From positions 1 through 40,186 of the IMG/VR virus record IMGVR_UViG_2728369554_000009: a stretch of DNA of 40,186 nucleotides. One strand, written 5' to 3'. This document shows positions 2,796 through 36,801 of this stretch, in pieces (the stretch's first letter is position 1; every line of letters begins with the position of its first letter). The translations under genes were made by a program, and so were the position numbers. The notes under the pieces are model-generated. The model saw only the letters and a list, made by a program, of their open reading frames with translations, was not told the DNA's origin and did not search any database. The DNA is from a virus (Duplodnaviria > Heunggongvirae > Uroviricota > Caudoviricetes).

Positions 2796-3677
2796 TTACA
2801 TAGATGTTTCGTTTAATTCTTCCCGACGAACGCTGTAAACGTCGGTGGCTTTTGCCAGCAGTTCGTCATCATCTGAAAGTTTTTGTGCAATGTATTTGTA
2901 AGCCTTATCCAGTTCGGAGACAGTGCTGTAATTCATCGCTGCGCTGGTAAAGGCCATCAGCATTTCTTCTGGATCACGGCTATCCGCTTTACGAGTTTGC
3001 TCATCAGGCTTTTTCACTGGTTTAGCGTTGATCAGACTGTTCATTCCCGCAGCAGTAGTTGTTTGCGGAGTAATGTCTCGCTCAACGCGCGGTGCCGTTT
3101 CCTGTAATTCGTCAGGGGTGTAAACACCGAGAAGCACATCAGGAGCGTGCAGGCGAGCCCATCGTTTCGTGCAAAGATAGGCAAGCTGCTGGCGCGGATC
3201 CTGTTCCCACAATGGAGAGTTACGCACTCCGGCTTGCGCCATACTGATGGTAAGCTCACGGGGTTCTGTTTCACCTTTAAGAACTGCTGACACAGTTACC
3301 GTCAGATTCGGTGATTTATCTGTTTTGCCGTTAACATTCGACCAGTCACCGCTCCAGCGATAATTCAGGCGTGTCGCCAGCAGGCTGGAAGAGGATACGA
3401 CCGCGTTTACCAACTGTGCTTCGTAGCCTAACGTTCCGTTTACCACATGCGTTTTCTGCGCCACGGCGAAAGGGTTCATTCCCCACTGTGCCGCCTGCAT
3501 AGTCACCGCCAGGCAATCGGCAGGTTTGCCTTCAAGATGTTTCGGTACAGTCGCTTTGCTTTGTGACATCAACTCCGCGAAACGCACCAGTTGATTCATG
3601 CCCTCGGGGCTGAAGATTGCCGCAGCAGTGCCTACAGTTGCGCCTGGTTGTGATGTGATTGCGATATCATTGCTCAT
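2796..3677 (-). CDS. bet: Bet (Red-beta)-like single-strand annealing protein
   Basis: 293 aa. 'GMNPFAV', 'LGYEAQL' and especially 'ERDITP' recall lambda Bet (GLNPW.., ..PERDITP). ATG 3677..3675 overlaps the TGA of the upstream exonuclease (ATGA). Confidence 0.7.
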   Translation of the reverse strand: MSNDIAITSQPGATVGTAAAIFSPEGMNQLVRFAELMSQSKATVPKHLEGKPADCLAVTMQAAQWGMNPFAVAQKTHVVNGTLGYEAQLVNAVVSSSSLLATRLNYRWSGDWSNVNGKTDKSPNLTVTVSAVLKGETEPRELTISMAQAGVRNSPLWEQDPRQQLAYLCTKRWARLHAPDVLLGVYTPDELQETAPRVERDITPQTTTAAGMNSLINAKPVKKPDEQTRKADSRDPEEMLMAFTSAAMNYSTVSELDKAYKYIAQKLSDDDELLAKATDVYSVRREELNETSM

Positions 3678-4495
3678 ACATACATATCCTGTTTACGTGC
3701 CCAGTCAGGGCGTTTAATAATTTCCACGCCGCCCCATTCATCATTTATGCGGCATTCGTGATAGGTATTCAGATCCCGGCGGAACAGAGCGTGCCCGGCA
3801 TCGACATCCGGCGCATCCAACTCGAACACGCGTACCGGATACCGACCACAATCAATGCTTTCGCTCACGGCAAGAAAGAAAAAACCATGCGGTTGACCAG
3901 TAACCCTCGTTGCGCCTTCGCGGTACATTGCGTCCTGCACGTGGTAGCGGAATTCCTCGATGTGGCGTGCAAAACGGTCCATATCTGCAACCTTTTTCAC
4001 GTCGACGATCACGTTGTGCTCGTTCAGCCATTTGTCTGGACGAATTCGGCACAACTCACCCGTCTCTTCATCGTTCCAGTACATTGATGCTTCGCAGTAA
4101 CCAGGTGCTTCCAACATCCAGCGTGCCGCCGGATGAGCCATTGCGCTATCACGCATGAGCTCAAGTTTTCGCCACTGCTCGACATCAAGTACCGTAATAC
4201 CCATATCCGCCACATCACGAAGAAATGCTTCTTCGTCAGCTTTACCTTGTTTTGTCCGACGATCGAATTTCGGTGACACGATGAAGCGTTTGTCGAATTC
4301 TCCAGGTTCCAGAAGCAGGCAGTGCAATGCGGTTCCCATATCCAATGCAGACTTTTTCTCTTCGTCTTCTGGTGCTGCCTGAACCCATTTAAGAAGCGCC
4401 GGATTCTTGGCAACCATGTCCAGTTGCGACTTACTCACGCCGTCACCTGCGTGGTAGTCTTCGTTGCTGATGCCGAAATAAATTCCCGGTTTCAT
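3674..4495 (-). CDS. PD-(D/E)XK (YqaJ/RecE-C-like) recombination exonuclease, partner of Bet
   Basis: 273 aa. 'DGVSKSQLD', 'EASMYW..D..GELCRIRPD' and 'IVDVKK' (D..E.K nuclease core). Coupled on both sides by 4-nt overlaps. Confidence 0.7.
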   Translation of the reverse strand: MKPGIYFGISNEDYHAGDGVSKSQLDMVAKNPALLKWVQAAPEDEEKKSALDMGTALHCLLLEPGEFDKRFIVSPKFDRRTKQGKADEEAFLRDVADMGITVLDVEQWRKLELMRDSAMAHPAARWMLEAPGYCEASMYWNDEETGELCRIRPDKWLNEHNVIVDVKKVADMDRFARHIEEFRYHVQDAMYREGATRVTGQPHGFFFLAVSESIDCGRYPVRVFELDAPDVDAGHALFRRDLNTYHECRINDEWGGVEIIKRPDWARKQDMYV

Positions 4496-4965: not shown

Positions 4966-4980
4966 TTACCGTTGAGGTAA
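4966..4980. promoter_or_regulatory. operator copy TTACCGTTGAGGTAA, overlapping the start of the leftward early promoter (pL-like); extra half-site TTACC at 4953
   Basis: Perfect TTACC-N5-GGTAA palindrome. On the minus strand it sits just downstream of TTGACA(5006..5001)-CATAAT. Confidence 0.7.
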
Positions 4981-5099: not shown

Positions 5100-5684
5100 T
5101 TATTGTTTGTTTTTTTCGTTCTGGCTGATGACAAATTCAATGTAACTTTCGATCTTTGCCTTCTCTGTTTCGGGTAACAATGCGTAGCGCGAGCGGTCAT
5201 AGTTGATAGTCGCAGGGTCGTGCGGGTGAATCAGTAATTCATAGCCGTGACGCCCGAATGCGGATGCAACATTCTCCAGGGTGGAAATGGAAACGCTGAC
5301 CTCATTGTTTAACAGGCGGCTGATTGTCACCTGGGCGACGCCGGATGCGCGGTGAAGTTTTCCCTGTGTTGAAAGGTAGCGGCTTTCGCTCATCCAGCGT
5401 TCCAGGTTGTGAGCCGCCAGCTGACCAATGTCGCTTGGGCCGACAGGCTGAAAACCTTCCTGAGAAAGCGAGCGATCGATATCAAGCCAGTTACGGGGTT
5501 TATTGGCGGCAGCTTCAATTTTTCGCGCAACCTGGTCGCCGATAACCTTCTTGCCAAGAGCCCAGCGGTTTACCAGATTTGCCTGAGTTCCAAGTTTTTC
5601 TGCCATCCGCGTCTGAACACCATTGAATTCACGGTCGATCAAGTCGTTGAGATTTTGCCTGCGGACGTCCTGGATACTTTTCAT
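5100..5684 (-). CDS. phage repressor, HTH protein without LexA/S24 peptidase domain
   Basis: 194 aa. 'GVQTRMAEKLGTQANLVNRWALGKK' HTH and a second HTH-like 'GVAQVTISRLL'. No Ala-Gly / Ser..Lys autocleavage motifs. Divergent from the cro-like gene, with three operators in between. Confidence 0.65.
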   Translation of the reverse strand: MKSIQDVRRQNLNDLIDREFNGVQTRMAEKLGTQANLVNRWALGKKVIGDQVARKIEAAANKPRNWLDIDRSLSQEGFQPVGPSDIGQLAAHNLERWMSESRYLSTQGKLHRASGVAQVTISRLLNNEVSVSISTLENVASAFGRHGYELLIHPHDPATINYDRSRYALLPETEKAKIESYIEFVISQNEKNKQ

Positions 5685-29462: not shown

Positions 29463-29861
29463 TTAAGTGTATACCTCCTGCTGTTCAGTCGTGATTTTAC
29501 CCGGCAACACCTTTTTAGCTTTGCGCGGGTTAACCACATGGCCTTTAGTCCAGTACTCGTAGAGCACATCATCACACTCTTCCTGATACTGGATTACCTT
29601 ATCGCGGATTTCAGGGCGGACTTTGTTTGGACTGATGCTGTTCAACCAAGCTGCCAATTTTCGTAAAGCCATACAAATCATGGCTTGCACCCCTCCGGCA
29701 GAAGGTATGGTGATTTCCACCATACCCTTCGAGAAGCGTTGAGAAATCTTCTTATGTTGAGATTTCCAGTCTAGACCCATTCCCTCAACGATAGGTTTCA
29801 TTGGGGTGTACGGTTCGCCGTTGTGATTGACAACATAAAGTTCTACGCCGTGGAATGGCAC
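29463..29861 (-). CDS. Rha/KilA-N (ORF6N)-like antirepressor-family protein
   Basis: 132 aa from GTG. 'GVELYVVNHNGEPYTPMKPIVEGMGLDWKSQ..AMICMALRKLAAWLN'. Weak RBS. Confidence 0.45.
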   Translation of the reverse strand: MPFHGVELYVVNHNGEPYTPMKPIVEGMGLDWKSQHKKISQRFSKGMVEITIPSAGGVQAMICMALRKLAAWLNSISPNKVRPEIRDKVIQYQEECDDVLYEYWTKGHVVNPRKAKKVLPGKITTEQQEVYT

Positions 29862-30008
29862 GTTGATAGTAGTGACAAGTTTGAAACATCGCTGGTTGTA
29901 AGCCAGCAGATGCTCGTTATTTTACATCGCGGTACAATTTCTCGCTGGTGGCTCTTTTATACACCTTAACCAAATATGGTTGATTTTGATATTTATCTTC
30001 GTCTATTA

Positions 30009-30023
30009 TTACCTTTTCGGTAA
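30009..30023. promoter_or_regulatory. operator TTACCTTTTCGGTAA fused to -10 TATTAT (module A promoter)
   Basis: TTGATT-N18-TATTAT|TACC. Confidence 0.65.
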
Positions 30024-30290
30024 ATTTACATCGCACTCCTCTTGTGCCATAGTAATCGGGCACTGGCAAAATCCAGTGCCGGGATTGGTCTCCCGGATTA
30101 CTACAGAGGCACATATGCCGCATAAGCGGTTTTTTTATGTGTAAAGCGCACCTATTCTATGGTGGGCTGTGTGGGGGCACCGAAAGGTGCGCCGGGTTCC
30201 TTTGTAGCCGGTAAGACCAACTCTGCACAGTTCACCACCATCTGATTGGTCTCAGCGGTGGTGATTAACCTAACTACAAAGGTGATCGCC
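30024..30290 (+). ncRNA. conserved structured 5' leader of antirepressor A (hairpins plus internal terminator 30118..30136)
   Basis: First 95 nt are identical to the inverted copy at 33197..33103. Hairpins 30059..30080 and CCGGGA-ttggtc-TCCCGG 30079..30096. CCGC-ataa-GCGG followed by 7 T. GNRA hairpin GCACC-gaaa-GGTGC with a compensatory variant in copy B. 8-bp stem TCACCACC/GGTGGTGA. Confidence 0.5.
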
Positions 30291-30983
30291 ATGAATACCA
30301 AACCTTCCATCTTTTCCTTTGAGTCATCCTGCCAGATCCGTATGTTCATGATTGACGGAGAACCTTGGTTTGTCACCAAAGATGTGTGCAATGCTTTGAA
30401 TATTGATGTTACACAAGCGAGAAAACTTGATAAAAAAGGCTGGAACAAAAAGGGGCTGTATTCAATACAGACCCCTGGTGGAATACAAGAACTATCCATC
30501 GTTTCAGAATCAGGTCTCTACATCCTTATTCTGCGTTGCAAAGAGGCAATGACTGAGGGAACGAGAGCATTCAGATTTCTTGAATGGGTTACAGGTGAGG
30601 TTCTTCCTCAGATCCGCCGCACCGGAAGTTACATTAAAAACTCGCTCCCGCAGGAAGAACGCATAAAGATGGTTGCCGACCAGGTAGCCAACGCCACGGC
30701 GTCAGCAGTAATGCAGGCGATGAAGATAGAGAACAAAACCTACAGTGCCCCGCTGAAGCCCGGCTACCGCAGCCTGATTCATTCTCCGTCTGGTGTTCTC
30801 GGCCTGACGGAGAACTCACTGCTGATGAATCTGCTGAACCAGTTACAGGAAGACGGGCACGATGTATCGGGCGCGGCGGCGGAGCTGACCACCATGTTCT
30901 GCTACATCGTCGGTGTGAGCAAATGCCTGCGTGATATCCAGACGCACGCGGAATACATCAACGACAAGGCAGGGTTCTTCTGA
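30291..30983 (+). CDS. antirepressor A: Bro-N domain plus shared antirepressor C-terminal domain
   Basis: 'MIDGEPWFVTKDVCNALNI..ELSIVSESGLYILILRC' is Bro-N. The C-terminal 85 aa is nearly identical to the C-terminus of gene 32255..32911. SD AAGGTGA. Confidence 0.7.
   Translation: MNTKPSIFSFESSCQIRMFMIDGEPWFVTKDVCNALNIDVTQARKLDKKGWNKKGLYSIQTPGGIQELSIVSESGLYILILRCKEAMTEGTRAFRFLEWVTGEVLPQIRRTGSYIKNSLPQEERIKMVADQVANATASAVMQAMKIENKTYSAPLKPGYRSLIHSPSGVLGLTENSLLMNLLNQLQEDGHDVSGAAAELTTMFCYIVGVSKCLRDIQTHAEYINDKAGFF
30742..30983. repeat. inverted repeat arm 1, about 97% identical to rc(32255..32496)
   Basis: Direct comparison of both strands. Encodes the shared antirepressor C-domain. Confidence 0.8.
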
Positions 30984-31020
30984 CAGAACGGCGGCACAGG
31001 GACGTGCAAAACGAAACTAG

Positions 31021-31299: not shown

Positions 31300-31812
31300 C
31301 TATGCAGGCTTTTTGGATTTGTACGAATAATCCCACGGATAAACATTTCTACTAAGTGGAGCTGTATTCGTTCGTTCATGAAATAATTTTGTGAAATTCA
31401 ATACGGAATCCATCCAAACTTTTGCGTTAGCTTTGGTGTGTGCGGGCGGGTCCCAATAAGCTAGTAAGGCTGCATCTCTTATTTCATTGACTGCATATAT
31501 GAGATATGCGTTACTGGTTGGTTTTGGCCTGTAATTTCCTTGTTCATCAATCAATCCATATGACCACTCATCCCAACACTGTTCAGTACATGAGTATGAA
31601 TATGATGCATATTCACCAATATTGACATGAACCTTTCTGAGATGGAAGCCTAATACTTCCTCTGGTCTTTCAAAAAGAGTATCTTTTCCCAGATCAGGAT
31701 GATGACCATGACGCCAGTGTTGTTTAAAAGCATCTTTTAGCGAAATCAGAAAGTCATCAGTTTTAAACTCACCAGTAGGTATAACCTTCCCGCTATACTC
31801 ACTCAAAAACAT
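31300..31812 (-). CDS. YafO-family toxin-like protein with N-terminal extension
   Basis: 'FHLRKVHVNIG' and 'AYLIYAVNE..AALLAYWDPPAH' align to E. coli YafO 'FERVAHIHLA' and 'AHLVYCQG..AWLLIAILKPEPH' (recalled from memory). SD GGAAGAGGA. 14-nt overlap with the upstream gene. Confidence 0.55.
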   Translation of the reverse strand: MFLSEYSGKVIPTGEFKTDDFLISLKDAFKQHWRHGHHPDLGKDTLFERPEEVLGFHLRKVHVNIGEYASYSYSCTEQCWDEWSYGLIDEQGNYRPKPTSNAYLIYAVNEIRDAALLAYWDPPAHTKANAKVWMDSVLNFTKLFHERTNTAPLSRNVYPWDYSYKSKKPA

Positions 31813-32125
31813 CGAATTCCTCTTCCTTCATATGCGTTTCTAATGAGTTAAGCTGGCGGAAAGATATCTCTTTTGATTCTGCAGATGAGAGCTTTTTTAT
31901 CCGCTTTATATTCTTTGTGATAGGAATAGACATTGTATGCACATCAGCGGATGCTCTTGGCTTTGTGCTGATAAAAATATGGCGCAATGCCGCATTTTCA
32001 CTATTGAACGAGCCAATAGCTGATTTACGTGCTACAACCTTACCAGTAAAAATACGACTCTTGCTACGCTTTGCATGAGTTCCGCTTCTTACCGGACCTC
32101 TCATCACGAATCCAAGTTTTGTCAT
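31799..32125 (-). CDS. basic 108-aa partner protein (candidate non-canonical antitoxin)
   Basis: SD GGAG 8 nt before ATG 32125. Acidic C-terminus. No similarity to Phd/YefM-type YafN. Confidence 0.45.
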   Translation of the reverse strand: MTKLGFVMRGPVRSGTHAKRSKSRIFTGKVVARKSAIGSFNSENAALRHIFISTKPRASADVHTMSIPITKNIKRIKKLSSAESKEISFRQLNSLETHMKEEEFDVFE

Positions 32126-32167: not shown

Positions 32168-32182
32168 TTACCTTTAAGGTAA
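32168..32182. promoter_or_regulatory. operator TTACCTTTAAGGTAA overlapping -10 of TA-like operon promoter
   Basis: Minus strand: TTGCAG-N17-TACTAT|TACC. Confidence 0.65.
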
Positions 32183-32254
32183 TAGTACGCTATTCACCCC
32201 CGGTCTGCAATCTGTACAGAATTATTTAAAGGCACATCCCTGTGCCACCGCCCG

Positions 32255-32496
32255 TCAGAAGAACCCTGCCTTGTCGTTGATGTACTCCGCGTGGGTCTGG
32301 ATATCACGCAGGCATTTGCTCACACCGACGATGTAGCAGAACATGGTGGTCAGCTCCGCCGCCGCGCCCGATACGTCGTGCCCGTCGTCCTGTAACTGGT
32401 TCAGCAGATTCATCAGCAGTGAGTTCTCCGTCAGGCCGAGAACACCAGACGGCGAATGAATCAGGCTGCGGTAGCCGGGCTTCAGTGGGGCGCTGT
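32255..32496. repeat. inverted repeat arm 2
   Basis: As above. The arms flank about 1.27 kb containing the secreted peptide and the YafO-like pair. Confidence 0.8.
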
Positions 32497-32911
32497 ATTC
32501 TTTTTTGTCTTCCAGCTTGATCGCCTCCATTATGGCGGGCATGAAGCCTGACAAGACCTTCTCCACTTTTGTTTCTTGTTGTCTTAAACGTTTCTCGCAT
32601 TCAATGAAGTAGCGTCGCACCTGGCGACCTTTTTCGTTACGCTCGACCATCGCCAGCTCTTTGGCTGTATCAAGGGTGAGGTGGTACTCTTTGCGGTTGT
32701 GGCCGCCTCTACCAGATGTTTGCTTTCCCAAATTGGAAAGCAAAATATAGTCTTGATTTTCAATGAATTCGTATTCTGATATGCGATTTGTAATCCATGC
32801 TGCAAACACCTTTTTAACACCTAAAAAAGCGTGCAGATCGCGGGCATTACAAAGTAGGGCTGTTTCGTTAGATATAGTGCCGTTGAATACGGGGATGAGT
32901 TGAGCGTTCAT
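32255..32911 (-). CDS. antirepressor B: AntA/KilA-N-type N-domain plus shared antirepressor C-terminal domain
   Basis: '[29 protein letters not shown]' N-domain. C-terminal 85 aa is about 97% identical to antirepressor A. Confidence 0.7.
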
Positions 32912-33182
32912 GATGGCGTCTCCACTTAGCGAATTACATCACCACCGCTGAGACCAATCAGATGGTGGTGAACTGAACGGAGTTGGTCTTACCGGCCTAA
33001 GTGGTACCGGCGTCCTTTCGGACCCCCATTCAGCCCACCATAATTCTGGCATGACTGTGCTATACGCATAAAAAAACCACGTCTGGCGTGGTATGCGCCA
33101 CTTAGTAATCCGGGAGACCAATCCCGGCACTGGATTTTGCCAGTGCCCGATTACTATGGCACAAGAGGAGTGCGATGTAAAT
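32912..33182 (-). ncRNA. conserved structured 5' leader of antirepressor B (inverted paralogue of 30024..30290; internal terminator at 33070..33092)
   Basis: ACCACG-ccaga-CGTGGT followed by 7 U. The stem is retained despite sequence divergence from copy A. Confidence 0.5.
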
Positions 33183-33197
33183 TTACCGAAAAGGTAA
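33183..33197. promoter_or_regulatory. operator TTACCGAAAAGGTAA (module B promoter: minus strand TTGCAA-N17-TATATT|TACC)
   Basis: Perfect palindrome. Confidence 0.65.
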
Positions 33198-33228
33198 ATA
33201 TAAGCACTCCACTTGGTAATTGCAAACC

Positions 33229-33486
33229 TTATCTGGTTTGTTTTCGTAATTGTTCGGCACAATAGTCGAGATGTGTTTGCAGATCCTGCATAGACATCTG
33301 TGAGCTGGTGACGTAGTTAATCAGTGCAGTCAGTTCGGCAAGTGGGCCATCGACATTAAATCCATCCTTATCGAGATCCCGGAGTAATTTCATCAAGTGC
33401 GATCCCTCCACCAGTGACCTGACGCCTCCCGGCGTGTGAATCCTTTCGGTAAATCCGTCTTCCAGTGGATAGTGATACTGCTGCAT
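33229..33486 (-). CDS. stand-alone antirepressor C-terminal-domain protein (85 aa), LexA-controlled
   Basis: 'PLEDGFTERIHTPGGVRSLVEGSHLMKLL..DGFNVDGPLAELT..DLQTHLDY' parallels the shared C-domain '[50 protein letters not shown]'. SD GGAG. LexA box 22 nt upstream of the ATG. Confidence 0.55.
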   Translation of the reverse strand: MQQYHYPLEDGFTERIHTPGGVRSLVEGSHLMKLLRDLDKDGFNVDGPLAELTALINYVTSSQMSMQDLQTHLDYCAEQLRKQTR

Positions 33487-33507
33487 CTTATCTTCTCCAT
33501 GCAATAA

Positions 33508-33523
33508 CTGTATATTTATACAG
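33508..33523. promoter_or_regulatory. LexA (SOS) box CTGTATATTTATACAG
   Basis: Exact CTGT-N8(AT-rich)-ACAG 16-mer. Overlaps the TATAAA -10 candidate of the minus-strand gene. Confidence 0.7.
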
Positions 33524-33562
33524 TAGCAAATAATTTGTTTGCTATCCAGCACGTTTTGCAAA

Positions 33563-33577
33563 TTACCTGAAAGGTAA
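33563..33577. promoter_or_regulatory. operator TTACCTGAAAGGTAA in spacer of tailspike promoter
   Basis: TTGCAA-[operator]-TATCTA. Confidence 0.6.
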
Positions 33578-33681: not shown

Positions 33682-36600
33682 ATGACGGTCTCAACCGAAG
33701 TTGACCACAACGAATACACCGGTAACGGCGTTACGACATCGTTTCCGTATACTTTTCGAATTTTCAGAAAATCAGACCTGGTTGTTCAGGTGTCTGACCT
33801 GAACGGAAACGTAACAGAATTGGTTCTGGATACCGGTTATACGGTAACTGGGGCGGGCACTTATAGTGGCGGTTCTGTGGTTCTTCCGTCTCCGCTTGCT
33901 ACTGGATGGCGAATTACGATAGATCGTGTGCTTGATGTAGTGCAGGAGACAGACCTTCGCAATCAGGGAAAATTTTTCCCCGAAGTGCATGAAGATGCCT
34001 TTGACTACCTGACGATGCTGATCCAGCAATGTTTTGGGTGGTTCAGACGTGCATTGATGAAACCATCTTTGCTTGCAAAATATTACGATGCAAAGCAAAA
34101 CAAAATTTCTAACCTTGCAGATCCATCATTTGAGCAGGACGCTGTAAATAATCGCTCAATGCGTAATTATGTCGATGCTGCAATCGCCGGGGTTGTTGGT
34201 GGTTTTGGTTGGTTTATTCAGTATGGTTCTGGGGCTGTGTACCGAACGTTCCAGGATAAAATGCGTGATGCTATTAGCCCCAAAGATTTTGGAGCTGTTG
34301 GTGATGGTATAAATGACGATTCCACTGCAATAAGCGCGTGCCTTGAAGCCTCATCTCCAGGTTATAAAATTGACGGATTAGGGCTTACTTTTAAAGTATC
34401 AACTCTTCCGGATGTCAGTCGATTTAAAAATGCTCGTTTTTTATTTGAGAGAATACCGGGCCAGCCTCTTTTTTATGCTTCTGAAGATTTTATCCAGGGA
34501 GAGTTATTTAAAATTACAGATACACCGTGGTACAACGCCTGGACGCAGGATAAAACGTTTGTATATGACAATGTCATCTATGCGCCTTTTATGGCTGGAG
34601 ACCGCCATGGTGTAAATAACCTCCATGTTGCATGGGTTCGCTCAGGAGATGACGGGAAGACCTGGACAACGCCGGAATGGCTTACAGATTTACATGAAAA
34701 CTATCCCACAGTTAACTATCACTGCATGAGTATGGGGGTTGTCAGAAATCGCCTTTTTGCTGTAATTGAGACGCGGACCGTGAGCGGAAATAAACTGCAG
34801 GTTGCAGAGTTGTGGGATCGCCCAATGAGTCGCAGCCTTCGCGTTTATGGTGGTATAACGAAAGCAGCAAATCAGCAAGTCGCTTATATTCGCATTACTG
34901 ATCACGGATTATTTGCTGGTGATTTTGTCAACTTCTCAAACTCTGGTGTTACAGGTGTTACCGGGAATATGACGGTGACTACTGTTATTGATAAAAATAC
35001 TTTTACAGTTACGACGCAAAATACCCAGGATGTGGATCAGAATAACGAGGGTAGATACTGGAGTTTTGGTACATCATTTCACTCGTCACCATGGAGAAAA
35101 ACCAGTCTTGGAACTATTCCTTCTTTTGTTGACGGAAGCACTCCTGTTACTGAGATTCACAGTTTTGCGACGATTAGCGATAACAGTTTTGCTGTTGGCT
35201 ACCATAATGGTGATATTGGTCCACGCGAGCTTGGGATACTCTATTTCTCTGATGCTTTCGGTTCTCCTGGTAGCTTTATTCGCAGACGCATACCTGCAGA
35301 ATATGAGGCGAATGCATCTGAGCCATGTGTAAAATATTATGATGGCATTCTGTATCTGACGACCAGGGGGACATTAAGTACTCAACCCGGTAGTTCATTG
35401 CACAGAAGCTCTGATTTAGGTACATCATGGAATTCTCTTCGCTTCCCAAATAATGTTCATCACTCAAACCTTCCTTTTGCCAAAGTTGGCGATGAGCTGA
35501 TTATTTTTGGCAGTGAGCGCGCATTTGGTGAGTGGGAAGGAGGAGAACCTGATAACCGTTATGCAGGAAATTATCCAAGAACATTTATGACCAGAGTTAA
35601 CGTCAATGAGTGGAGTCTGGATAATGTAGAGTGGGTTAATGTTACTGATCAGATTTATCAGGGCGGAATAGTTAACTCTGCGGTTGGTGTTGGTTCAGTT
35701 TGTATCAAAGACAACTGGCTGTACTACATTTTCGGTGGGGAAGACTTTCTAAACCCATGGAGCATAGGGGATAACAACAGAAAATATCCTTATGTTCACG
35801 ATGGTCACCCGGCTGATTTATATTGTTTCAGGGTGAAAATCAAACAGGAAGAATTTGTTTCAAGGGATTTTGTCTACGGAGCCACTCCTAACAGAACGCT
35901 TCCTACTTTTATGTCGACGTCAGGCGTGAGGACGGTTCCTGTACCCGTTGATTTCACAGATGATGTTGCCGTCCAGTCACTGACTGTCCATGCAGGTACA
36001 TCAGGACAAGTTCGCGCGGAAGTCAAACTTGAGGGTAATTACGCCATTATTGCGAAGAAAGTACCGTCTGATGATGTTACCGCTCAGAGATTAATCGTTA
36101 GCGGCGGTGAAACAACGTCTTCAGCAGATGGTGCAATGATAACGTTGCATGGTTCCGGAAGCAGTACTCCACGTCGCGCGGTATATAACGCACTCGAACA
36201 TCTTTTTGAGAACGGAGATGTTAAACCTTATCTTGATAATGTAAATGCTCTTGGTGGTCCGGGAAACAGGTTCTCGACAGTTTATCTTGGCTCCAATCCT
36301 GTGGTTACCAGTGACGGAACATTAAAGACAGAGCCGGTCTCTCCTGACGAAGCATTGCTGGATGCCTGGGGTGACGTCAGGTATATCGCTTATAAATGGC
36401 TGAACGCTGTCGCTATAAAGGGGGAAGAAGGGGCGAGGATACATCATGGTGTAATCGCGCAGCAACTTCGTGATGTTCTTATTTCTCACGGACTCATGGA
36501 AGAAGAAAGCACAACATGCCGCTATGCCTTTCTTTGCTATGACGATTATCCCGCAGTATATGATGACGTCATTACTGGCCAAAGGGAAATGCCGCTGACT

Positions 36601-36801
36601 GATAATGAAGGGAGCATCATTGTTGATGAGGATGATAATCCAGTGATGGTAATGGAAGACATCATTGAGCGCGTTGAAATAACGCCAGCAGGATCTAGAT
36701 GGGGGGTCAGACCTGATCTCTTATTCTATATCGAGGCAGCATGGCAGCGCAGAGAAATGGATAAGATAAAAGAGCGGATTCAGTCTCTGGAAGAACGTTA
36801 A
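33682..36801 (+). CDS. tailspike: T7 gp17-like N-terminal adaptor, sialidase-like beta-propeller (endosialidase-like), C-terminal S74 intramolecular chaperone
   Basis: 'NEYTGNGVTTSFPYTFRIF' N-terminal motif. Asp-boxes 'SGDDGKTW' and 'SSDLGTSW'. C-terminal 'GVIAQQL..HGLMEEESTTCRYAFLCYDDYP' auto-chaperone. SD GGAG. Confidence 0.8.
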   Translation: MTVSTEVDHNEYTGNGVTTSFPYTFRIFRKSDLVVQVSDLNGNVTELVLDTGYTVTGAGTYSGGSVVLPSPLATGWRITIDRVLDVVQETDLRNQGKFFPEVHEDAFDYLTMLIQQCFGWFRRALMKPSLLAKYYDAKQNKISNLADPSFEQDAVNNRSMRNYVDAAIAGVVGGFGWFIQYGSGAVYRTFQDKMRDAISPKDFGAVGDGINDDSTAISACLEASSPGYKIDGLGLTFKVSTLPDVSRFKNARFLFERIPGQPLFYASEDFIQGELFKITDTPWYNAWTQDKTFVYDNVIYAPFMAGDRHGVNNLHVAWVRSGDDGKTWTTPEWLTDLHENYPTVNYHCMSMGVVRNRLFAVIETRTVSGNKLQVAELWDRPMSRSLRVYGGITKAANQQVAYIRITDHGLFAGDFVNFSNSGVTGVTGNMTVTTVIDKNTFTVTTQNTQDVDQNNEGRYWSFGTSFHSSPWRKTSLGTIPSFVDGSTPVTEIHSFATISDNSFAVGYHNGDIGPRELGILYFSDAFGSPGSFIRRRIPAEYEANASEPCVKYYDGILYLTTRGTLSTQPGSSLHRSSDLGTSWNSLRFPNNVHHSNLPFAKVGDELIIFGSERAFGEWEGGEPDNRYAGNYPRTFMTRVNVNEWSLDNVEWVNVTDQIYQGGIVNSAVGVGSVCIKDNWLYYIFGGEDFLNPWSIGDNNRKYPYVHDGHPADLYCFRVKIKQEEFVSRDFVYGATPNRTLPTFMSTSGVRTVPVPVDFTDDVAVQSLTVHAGTSGQVRAEVKLEGNYAIIAKKVPSDDVTAQRLIVSGGETTSSADGAMITLHGSGSSTPRRAVYNALEHLFENGDVKPYLDNVNALGGPGNRFSTVYLGSNPVVTSDGTLKTEPVSPDEALLDAWGDVRYIAYKWLNAVAIKGEEGARIHHGVIAQQLRDVLISHGLMEEESTTCRYAFLCYDDYPAVYDDVITGQREMPLTDNEGSIIVDEDDNPVMVMEDIIERVEITPAGSRWGVRPDLLFYIEAAWQRREMDKIKERIQSLEER

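Follow-up and report, generated by a model that had tools for sequence, protein, structure and literature searches.

Phage DNA with the characteristics of a temperate podovirus (IMG/VR record IMGVR_UViG_2728369554_000009, Caudoviricetes, positions 1 to 40,186; this whole stretch of 40,186 nucleotides (nt) is referred to here as the window) carries a minus-strand gene of 85 amino acids (aa), ant, which lies directly behind a LexA (SOS) box. Together with the prophage repressor gene rep, this gene and its box correspond to the switch of LexA, the small antirepressor Ant and the repressor Rep that is published for phage SPC32H, and we consider it very probable that the core of the system is that switch. 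Two larger genes in the window encode proteins that end in an Ant-type domain and stand behind isrK-like and C4 RNA leaders. The explanation as a whole, i.e., a LexA, Ant and Rep switch accompanied by RNA-gated inputs from the larger proteins, is in our judgement highly probable.

The 85-aa protein (33229..33486, minus strand, stop codon at 33229-33231 included) matches PDB chain 5D50_E, 'Anti-repressor protein', with E = 4e-47, and is 88% identical to SPC32H Ant over residues 2-84 (tblastn; 87% in alignment). The SPC32H gene is annotated as an anti-repressor in GenBank, likewise in SPC32N, and is placed and oriented as in the window, pointing away from the tailspike gene. Proteins 97-100% identical to Ant are found in many E. 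coli Uetakeviruses, and the gene is labelled "hypothetical protein" in the genomes of phiv142-3, phiV10, ZX5, HEMP4 and TL-2011b. A Pfam scan of the 85-aa protein gave nothing significant (only a sub-threshold DUF724), and searches of the PDB and sequence databases returned Ant-type proteins only, with no Tum or DinI-like homologue. An initial annotation, made from the letters of the window alone, had proposed a minus-strand gene of this length with a GGAG ribosome-binding site (RBS) and a start at ATG 33486, and the orthologues bear it out.

This start decides whether the upstream sequence is an operator at all. The mechanical list of open reading frames (ORFs) lengthens ant to 126 aa, from ATG 33609; the frame is open from there, and a 126/127-aa form is called in many database entries, e.g., P0003 with 833 members. 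Were this the true product, the 'LexA box' would be coding sequence. We rejected this reading as very improbable, given that the crystallised and annotated Ant of SPC32H has 86 aa, that GGAG (33495..33498, minus strand, as read from the sequence) sits 8 nt before ATG 33486, that the sequence upstream of this ATG is kept in regulatory-like blocks (a palindrome and the LexA box) with divergent stretches between them, and that Klebsiella homologues have a different and shorter N-terminal extension. A block at the ant start, GGAGAAGA...ATG, is kept in phiV10, SPC32H, Tyrion and BUCT554.

The LexA box occupies 33506..33525, its core CTGT-N8-ACAG being CTGTATATTTATACAG at 33508-33523. It agrees with the 20-nt LexA consensus TACTGTATATATATACAGTA at 18 of 20 positions (two mismatches), a search that gave no matches in 100 shuffles, and a box is present at the same place in phiV10, phiv142-3, SPC32H, Tyrion and BUCT554; the site named in the initial annotation is thus well founded, and we infer that LexA binds it. 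The window has two copies of CTGT-N8-ACAG where 0.44 are expected, and the second (17816) was set aside as a LexA site on account of its GC-rich core. Upstream of ant in two Klebsiella Uetakeviruses and in a distant relative (GCA_047784855.1, 9555-9580) the motif is ATGT-N8-ACAG instead of CTGT-N8-ACAG, and LexA control may be weaker or altered in those phages. According to the GenBank records, SPC32H and SPC32N have a single difference in the 111 bases upstream of ant, CTGTATGTTTATACAG versus CTGTATGTTTATAAAG (ACAG to AAAG), and the box that carries it aligns exactly with the LexA box of the window. Kim and Ryu reportedly found in 2013 that Ant becomes constitutive, and SPC32H turns into the lytic SPC32N, through one base change in a LexA site that overlaps the promoter of ant.

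The putative target of Ant is the 194-aa prophage repressor Rep, encoded on the minus strand at 5100..5684. Rep matches PDB chain 5D50_A, 'Repressor', over residues 1-190 (E = 1.4e-41), and the crystal structure 5D50 holds both Ant and Rep of SPC32H. It is 99% identical to the Rep of phiV10 and ZX5 and 42% identical to that of SPC32H, the latter identity being 52% across the first 75 residues and 32-43% in the C-terminal half, which reportedly makes the contact with Ant. The Pfam scan of this protein found HTH_3 and related helix-turn-helix (HTH) families only and no S24 peptidase domain. The initial annotation had likewise seen no S24 signature and had argued that SOS induction must be indirect, through a LexA-controlled antirepressor directed at a repressor without self-cleavage; orthology to SPC32H Ant and Rep points the same way.

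Rep would act on a set of TTACC-N5-GGTAA palindromes, of which the window holds 15 against 0.8 expected (pattern count), nearly all of them intergenic and in promoter-like positions. Each is 15 nt long, and they begin at 4966, 5028, 5740, 5788, 6125, 8094, 8156, 10539, 10557, 13804, 29423, 30009, 32168, 33183 and 33563. The first four flank rep, and two pairs exactly 62 bp apart (4966/5028 and 8094/8156) bracket promoter-like sites. These half-sites recur in SPC32H, where a pair spaced 62 bp apart likewise lies next to rep (2156/2218 of the SPC32H rep locus), despite the 42% identity of the repressors. The palindromes are very likely the Rep operator set, and the 62-bp pairs are probably paired operator sites for a Rep tetramer. 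One palindrome, TTACCTGAAAGGTAA at 33563..33577, is situated between ant and the tailspike gene, around 55 bp upstream of the LexA box centre, with its half-sites ATTACC and AGGTAA kept in 7/7 aligned phages; the candidate promoters that it may serve are those of ant and of the tailspike gene.

The phage setting agrees with this assignment. By the nucleotide identity of its relatives, the window belongs with the phiV10/epsilon15-like temperate podoviruses of the genus Uetakevirus. Over 800 bases around ant it is 99.1% identical to Escherichia phage phiv142-3 and 91-94% identical to phiV10 (91%), ZX5, HEMP4 and TL-2011b, all Uetakevirus. The gene lies after the internal virion/injection genes and is divergent from the tailspike gene, an arrangement kept in related phages including SPC32H.

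SPC32H is therefore the closest known system (Kim and Ryu 2013, J Virol 87:11775; Kim et al. 2016, PNAS 113:E2480; PDB 5D50, 5D4Z). The two phages share the genus, the position of ant, an Ant of 88% identity, the place of the LexA box, TTACC-N5-GGTAA palindromes around rep and a Rep that lacks an S24 domain and is homologous from end to end. They differ in that the host of the window phage is E. coli, in that Rep is merely 42% identical, and in that the window adds two Ant-domain genes led by isrK and C4 RNAs, a YafO-like module and a fragment of a P22-type Ant N-domain, none of which is present in the SPC32H region. Passages in reviews citing Kim and Ryu 2013 describe an SOS/LexA-controlled Ant that inhibits the repressor by protein-protein contact (PMC7380047). 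Other citing papers describe a tetrameric Ant that engages two dimers of Rep and takes apart the Rep tetramer, the form in which Rep binds DNA (PMC9638917), and state that the tetramerisation domain of Rep (CAD) is also responsible for the contact with Ant (PMC9986798).

The Ant-type domain recurs at the C-terminus of two larger modular antirepressors. One is a 230-aa protein (30291..30983, plus strand) with a Bro-N N-domain (Pfam, 51.4 bits) and an Ant-like C-domain at approximately 30729-30980; the other is a 218-aa protein (32255..32911, minus strand) with an AntA N-domain (Pfam, 91.8 bits) and an Ant-like C-domain at approximately 32258-32509. The homology of the 85-aa protein to the C-terminal 85 residues of both, claimed at the outset, is well supported: Ant is 39% identical to the last 85 residues of each in an alignment, BLASTP pairs it with the AntA protein at 42% identity over 74 residues (E = 6e-16), and residues 149-225 of the Bro-N protein match 5D50_E with E = 9e-14. 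A word-indexed protein search with the 85-aa query gave close stand-alone homologues only, and the fusions surfaced only in a profile search of representatives. This search of the Ant domain against 1.84 billion representatives returned only 64 clusters, which include both stand-alone proteins (about 85 aa) and C-terminal fusions whose heads are AntA, Bro-N, Phage_pRha and ORF6N. Judged by these matches, the Ant-type domain is a narrow family that has been shuffled onto the usual phage DNA-binding heads, and its combination with AntA, Bro-N, Rha or ORF6N may point to a portable repressor-binding module.

A functional pointer comes from phage vB_EcoP_ZX5 (Li et al. 2022, PMC9782041), which shares the C-domain, Rep and the 85-aa Ant with the window: its ORF4 is 82% identical to the Bro-N protein and has the same C-domain, its Rep is 99% identical and its 85-aa Ant is identical. 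Overexpression of ORF4 lowered lysogens from ~1e9 to 1e6, a drop of ~1000-fold, and the same paper annotates the 85-aa gene as hypothetical, with neither LexA nor SPC32H in its text (PMC9782041). The 'anti-immunity' Bro-N protein p23 of phiV10 (3376-3960 of the phiV10 locus) ends early, inside the Ant-type C-domain, compared with ZX5 and the window, the alignment diverging after ...LLMN; p23 may be inactive in the type phage owing to this shortened C-domain.

The two larger genes lie in an inverted duplication that takes in their leaders and C-domains (30004-30265 and 30728-30984 against 32938-33202 and 32254-32510). The leaders are 98% identical over 100 nt (30004-30103 / 33103-33202) and the C-domains 95% identical over 257 nt, and the duplicated cassettes differ in their N-terminal domains and in the pair formed by C4 loop and RBS. 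This suggests cassette exchange by recombination within conserved flanks. A second Ant-domain match was not found in SPC32H (within the ant region), epsilon15 or BUCT554, i.e., they have no large paralogue carrying the domain there, and a larger paralogue, or second tier, is therefore probably dispensable for the switch.

Each of the larger genes is preceded by two RNA elements that score above the Rfam gathering thresholds (50 bits for isrK, RF01394; 45 bits for C4, RF01695). The Bro-N leader, on the plus strand, contains an isrK-like RNA with terminator at 30060..30136 (74.7 bits; terminator 30117-30130) and a C4 antisense RNA at 30155..30242 (78.6 bits). The AntA leader, on the minus strand and directly downstream of ant, contains an isrK-like RNA with terminator at 33070..33146 (67.7 bits; hairpin 33092-33076) and a C4 antisense RNA at 32961..33045 (61.2 bits). 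The terminator hairpin lies at the end of each isrK match, and just upstream of each match is a promoter-like TTTACA-17-CATAGT (30025-30053 in the Bro-N cassette). Palindromes of the Rep type accompany both promoters, at 30009..30023 for Bro-N, within the 100-nt inverted duplication, and at 33183..33197 for AntA, with its centre ~43.5 bp before the isrK 5' end, so the placing of the larger paralogues near a phage operator in the initial annotation was sound. The palindrome abuts the isrK -35 hexamer without covering it, in the same position in phiv142-3, ZX5, Tyrion and Kp4865-1. A second promoter-like site upstream of isrK, TTGCAA-17-TATATT (33225-33197), ends at the palindrome, and both large-gene units have such a -10. 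The geometry is ambiguous, and Rep could repress one promoter of the isrK region and leave or even help the other. The immI region of P1 has two promoters and offers a parallel for a repressor that acts differently on each.

The C4 RNA of each cassette can pair with the RBS of its own gene through the loop of the second C4 hairpin. In the Bro-N cassette the loop CCUUUGUAG (30199-30207) is complementary to CUACAAAGG (30274-30282) at the Bro-N RBS, with a duplex energy of -12.0 kcal/mol; in the AntA cassette the loop CCACUUAG (33004-32997) is complementary to CUAAGUGG (32929-32922) at the AntA RBS, at -12.4 kcal/mol. Non-cognate crosses of these two cassettes reach -4.2 and -5.3 kcal/mol. Loop and target co-vary among the cassettes of six phages: the first pair is also that of the Tyrion and Kp4865-1 cassettes, the second also that of phiv142-3, and the phiV10 and ZX5 cassettes have the loop CCUUUUAG with the target CUAAAAGG. 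A second pairing, AGACCAA/UUGGUCU, co-varies as well, in phiV10 and Kp4865-1. Co-variation was scored with an all-against-all matrix of duplex energies, as MAFFT alignment put the divergent AntA cassette out of register. A distant prophage (GCA_047784855.1, 9601-10960) keeps the layout of tailspike, divergent mini-Ant (43% identity), palindrome with TTTACA-17-CATAGT, isrK, C4 and fused gene; its fused gene has a Rha head on an Ant-type C-domain, and the gene caller merged the RNA leader into an ORF of 319 aa.

Taken together, we propose that in a lysogen host LexA would occupy the SOS box of the ant promoter and so silence ant. On DNA damage, active RecA would lead to the self-cleavage of LexA and the 85-aa Ant would be made, which would then break the DNA-binding Rep tetramer into weakly binding dimers and so release the lytic promoters with TTACC-N5-GGTAA operators. 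The larger proteins most likely bind the same Rep through the shared domain. Each of their cassettes would work in the order of palindrome-flanked promoter, isrK-like RNA with terminator, C4 pairing with the RBS, and gene, and the larger proteins would then, rather than forming a plain second tier under the operators, be parallel, RNA-gated inputs that serve anti-immunity on superinfection or an SOS-independent or stress-linked induction.

Several observations weigh against this proposal. Rep is 42% identical to its SPC32H counterpart and Ant 88%, and the binding of Ant to Rep in the window phage is a transfer by homology. That Ant is far better conserved than its presumed target is an observation in its own right, to be explained either by a small conserved surface that suffices or by cross-action of Ant between related prophages, as with the Gifsy antirepressors. 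A sigma-70 scan left the LexA box without a called promoter. That the box overlaps the ant -10, as first proposed, is a putative reading drawn from hand-read hexamers and SPC32H homology; the candidates are TAGCAA-18-TATAAA and the better conserved TGGATA-17-TACTGT, both weak and with no -10 mapped. Finally, the leaders showed no conserved small ORF upstream of the genes that would compare with P1 icd or Gifsy-1 orf45. A 28-codon ORF was read by eye in the Bro-N leader, its AntA equivalent stops after 3 codons, and ZX5 has an annotated 38-aa 'ash family' ORF in the same leader region.

Other circuits can be built from the same parts. The initial annotation had put them in series, with LexA cleavage giving the mini-antirepressor, which inactivates Rep and thereby frees operator-controlled larger antirepressors that lock in induction. 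The TTACC-N5-GGTAA palindromes at both large-gene promoters, each with an upstream promoter-like -10 that ends at the palindrome and in a position kept in relatives, favour such a feed-forward, as do the Ant-type domain of the larger proteins and the promotion of lytic growth by overexpressed ZX5 ORF4, a close homologue (PMC9782041). This part of the two-tier idea has stood, but it had missed the isrK terminator and the pairing of C4 with the RBS, and the circuit was incomplete to that extent. As these elements intervene between promoter and gene, transcriptional derepression alone should give no protein, and loss of Rep is therefore probably insufficient by itself for large-gene expression; the equivalent mRNA of Gifsy-1 is transcribed but untranslated (PMC4825925). 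Moreover, the palindrome near -43.5 of the isrK promoter overlaps no hexamer and could equally activate, and SPC32H, epsilon15 and BUCT554 are without the second Ant-domain match. We find a serial circuit unlikely.

The order of the genes allows for a relay through RNA, in which SOS transcripts from the ant promoter read into isrK, C4 and AntA and raise IsrK RNA or outnumber C4, so that the large antirepressor is translated. If true, SOS would be coupled to a second antirepressor via RNA and not via Rep. The elements ant, isrK, C4 and fused gene are indeed adjacent and co-directional in the window, phiV10, ZX5, Tyrion and the distant relative with the 43% mini-Ant, the stretch from the ant stop (33229) to isrK (33146) has no predicted terminator, and extra IsrK raises AnrP translation >100-fold in Gifsy-1 (PMC4825925). 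However, the argument is purely positional, the Bro-N cassette is 3 kb away in opposite orientation, ~1.3 kb separate ant from isrK in Kp4865-1, and the adjacency may merely reflect a common insertion hot-spot; we find the relay as unlikely as the serial circuit. Similarly speculative, and in our estimate improbable, is that the LexA-gated mini-Ant and the isrK/C4-gated fused Ants converge on a single repressor as one conserved antirepression hub with several inputs. A brief LexA derepression could then be turned into committed induction, either by SOS-driven read-through from the ant promoter or by short and fused proteins that form mixed tetramers, and each of the two C4 specificities would contribute an anti-immunity or stress input of its own. 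The reading that we prefer remains the published LexA, Ant and Rep switch with the larger proteins as parallel inputs.

Each layer of this preferred reading has counterparts elsewhere. The antirepressors of 186 (Tum), Gifsy-1/-3 and Fels-2 follow the same logic, in that a small antirepressor repressed by LexA binds a non-cleavable repressor (Shearwin 1998; Lemire, Figueroa-Bossi and Bossi 2011, PMC3121763). They differ in that no sequence relationship to 186 Tum or Gifsy GfoA was detected; the Ant of the window would work alike and is not a member of that group. The abstract of the SPC32H paper reportedly presents Ant as structurally distinct from the 186 Tum and Gifsy-type antirepressors.

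For the two larger genes a counterpart is the immI region of P1 and P7, where the c4 RNA blocks translation of, and read-through into, ant. The reference for this region (c4, icd, ant) is Heinrich, Velleman and Schuster 1995 (FEMS Microbiol Rev 17:121). The likeness lies in a leader C4 RNA with two short stretches complementary to the downstream mRNA, one of them over the RBS, in a specificity that varies between cassettes as between P1 and P7, and in a repressor-type operator at the promoter. In contrast to immI, the window cassettes showed no conserved icd-like ORF, an isrK-like RNA precedes C4, and the antirepressors, far smaller in size, bear an Ant domain of the SPC32H type. The isrK-orf45(STnc1160)-anrP unit of Gifsy-1 resembles the cassettes in its isrK promoter, an IsrK RNA with a leaky terminator, a structured leader and an antirepressor-like gene. 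There, a long isrK-orf45-anrP transcript is made and stays untranslated until the short IsrK acts, which gives SOS-independent prophage induction (Hershko-Shalev et al. 2016, PMC4825925). Unlike Gifsy-1, the window showed no conserved orf45 equivalent, has two cassettes of distinct C4 loop specificity, and combines them with a LexA-controlled mini-Ant aimed at the same type of repressor.

The neighbourhood holds further genes of interest. The tailspike gene (33682-36801, plus strand) encodes an endosialidase with End_beta_propel (774 bits), End_tail_spike and a Peptidase_S74 chaperone; given this tailspike, K1-capsulated E. coli should be the target of the window phage. A stand-alone P22-type antirepressor N-domain of 132 aa (29463-29861, minus strand; P22_AR_N, 150 bits) is the fourth antirepressor-related gene within 4.5 kb; at the DNA level it matches part of ant from the K1 prophage CUS-3 with 95.7% identity, and it is probably a recombination remnant. 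Between the cassettes of the two large antirepressors lies a two-gene unit (31300-32125, minus strand) behind a Rep-type palindrome (32168-32182), consisting of a 108-aa ORF and, after it, the gene of a YafO-like toxin of 170 aa. The toxin has a weak Pfam match, and homologues of this 170-aa protein bear the RefSeq name 'type II toxin-antitoxin system YafO family toxin'.

An 85-aa antirepressor system under LexA control is already known, having been both published and solved structurally (PDB 5D50). To that switch the core adds an E. coli member, in a phage with a K1-capsule-specific tailspike. The findings are also of value for annotation, since most records, among them those of the experimentally studied ZX5 and phiV10, either label the 85-aa gene "hypothetical" or give it a wrong length of 126 aa. 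What is new is modest, i.e., that the SPC32H-type Ant recurs as the C-terminal module in larger antirepressors with Bro-N, AntA, Rha and ORF6N heads, which stand behind isrK/C4 leaders with cassette-specific pairing. One repressor may thus receive SOS and RNA-gated inputs through the same binding domain, and this, if confirmed, would help to explain which part of the proteins annotated as "Bro/AntA antirepressor" contacts the repressor.

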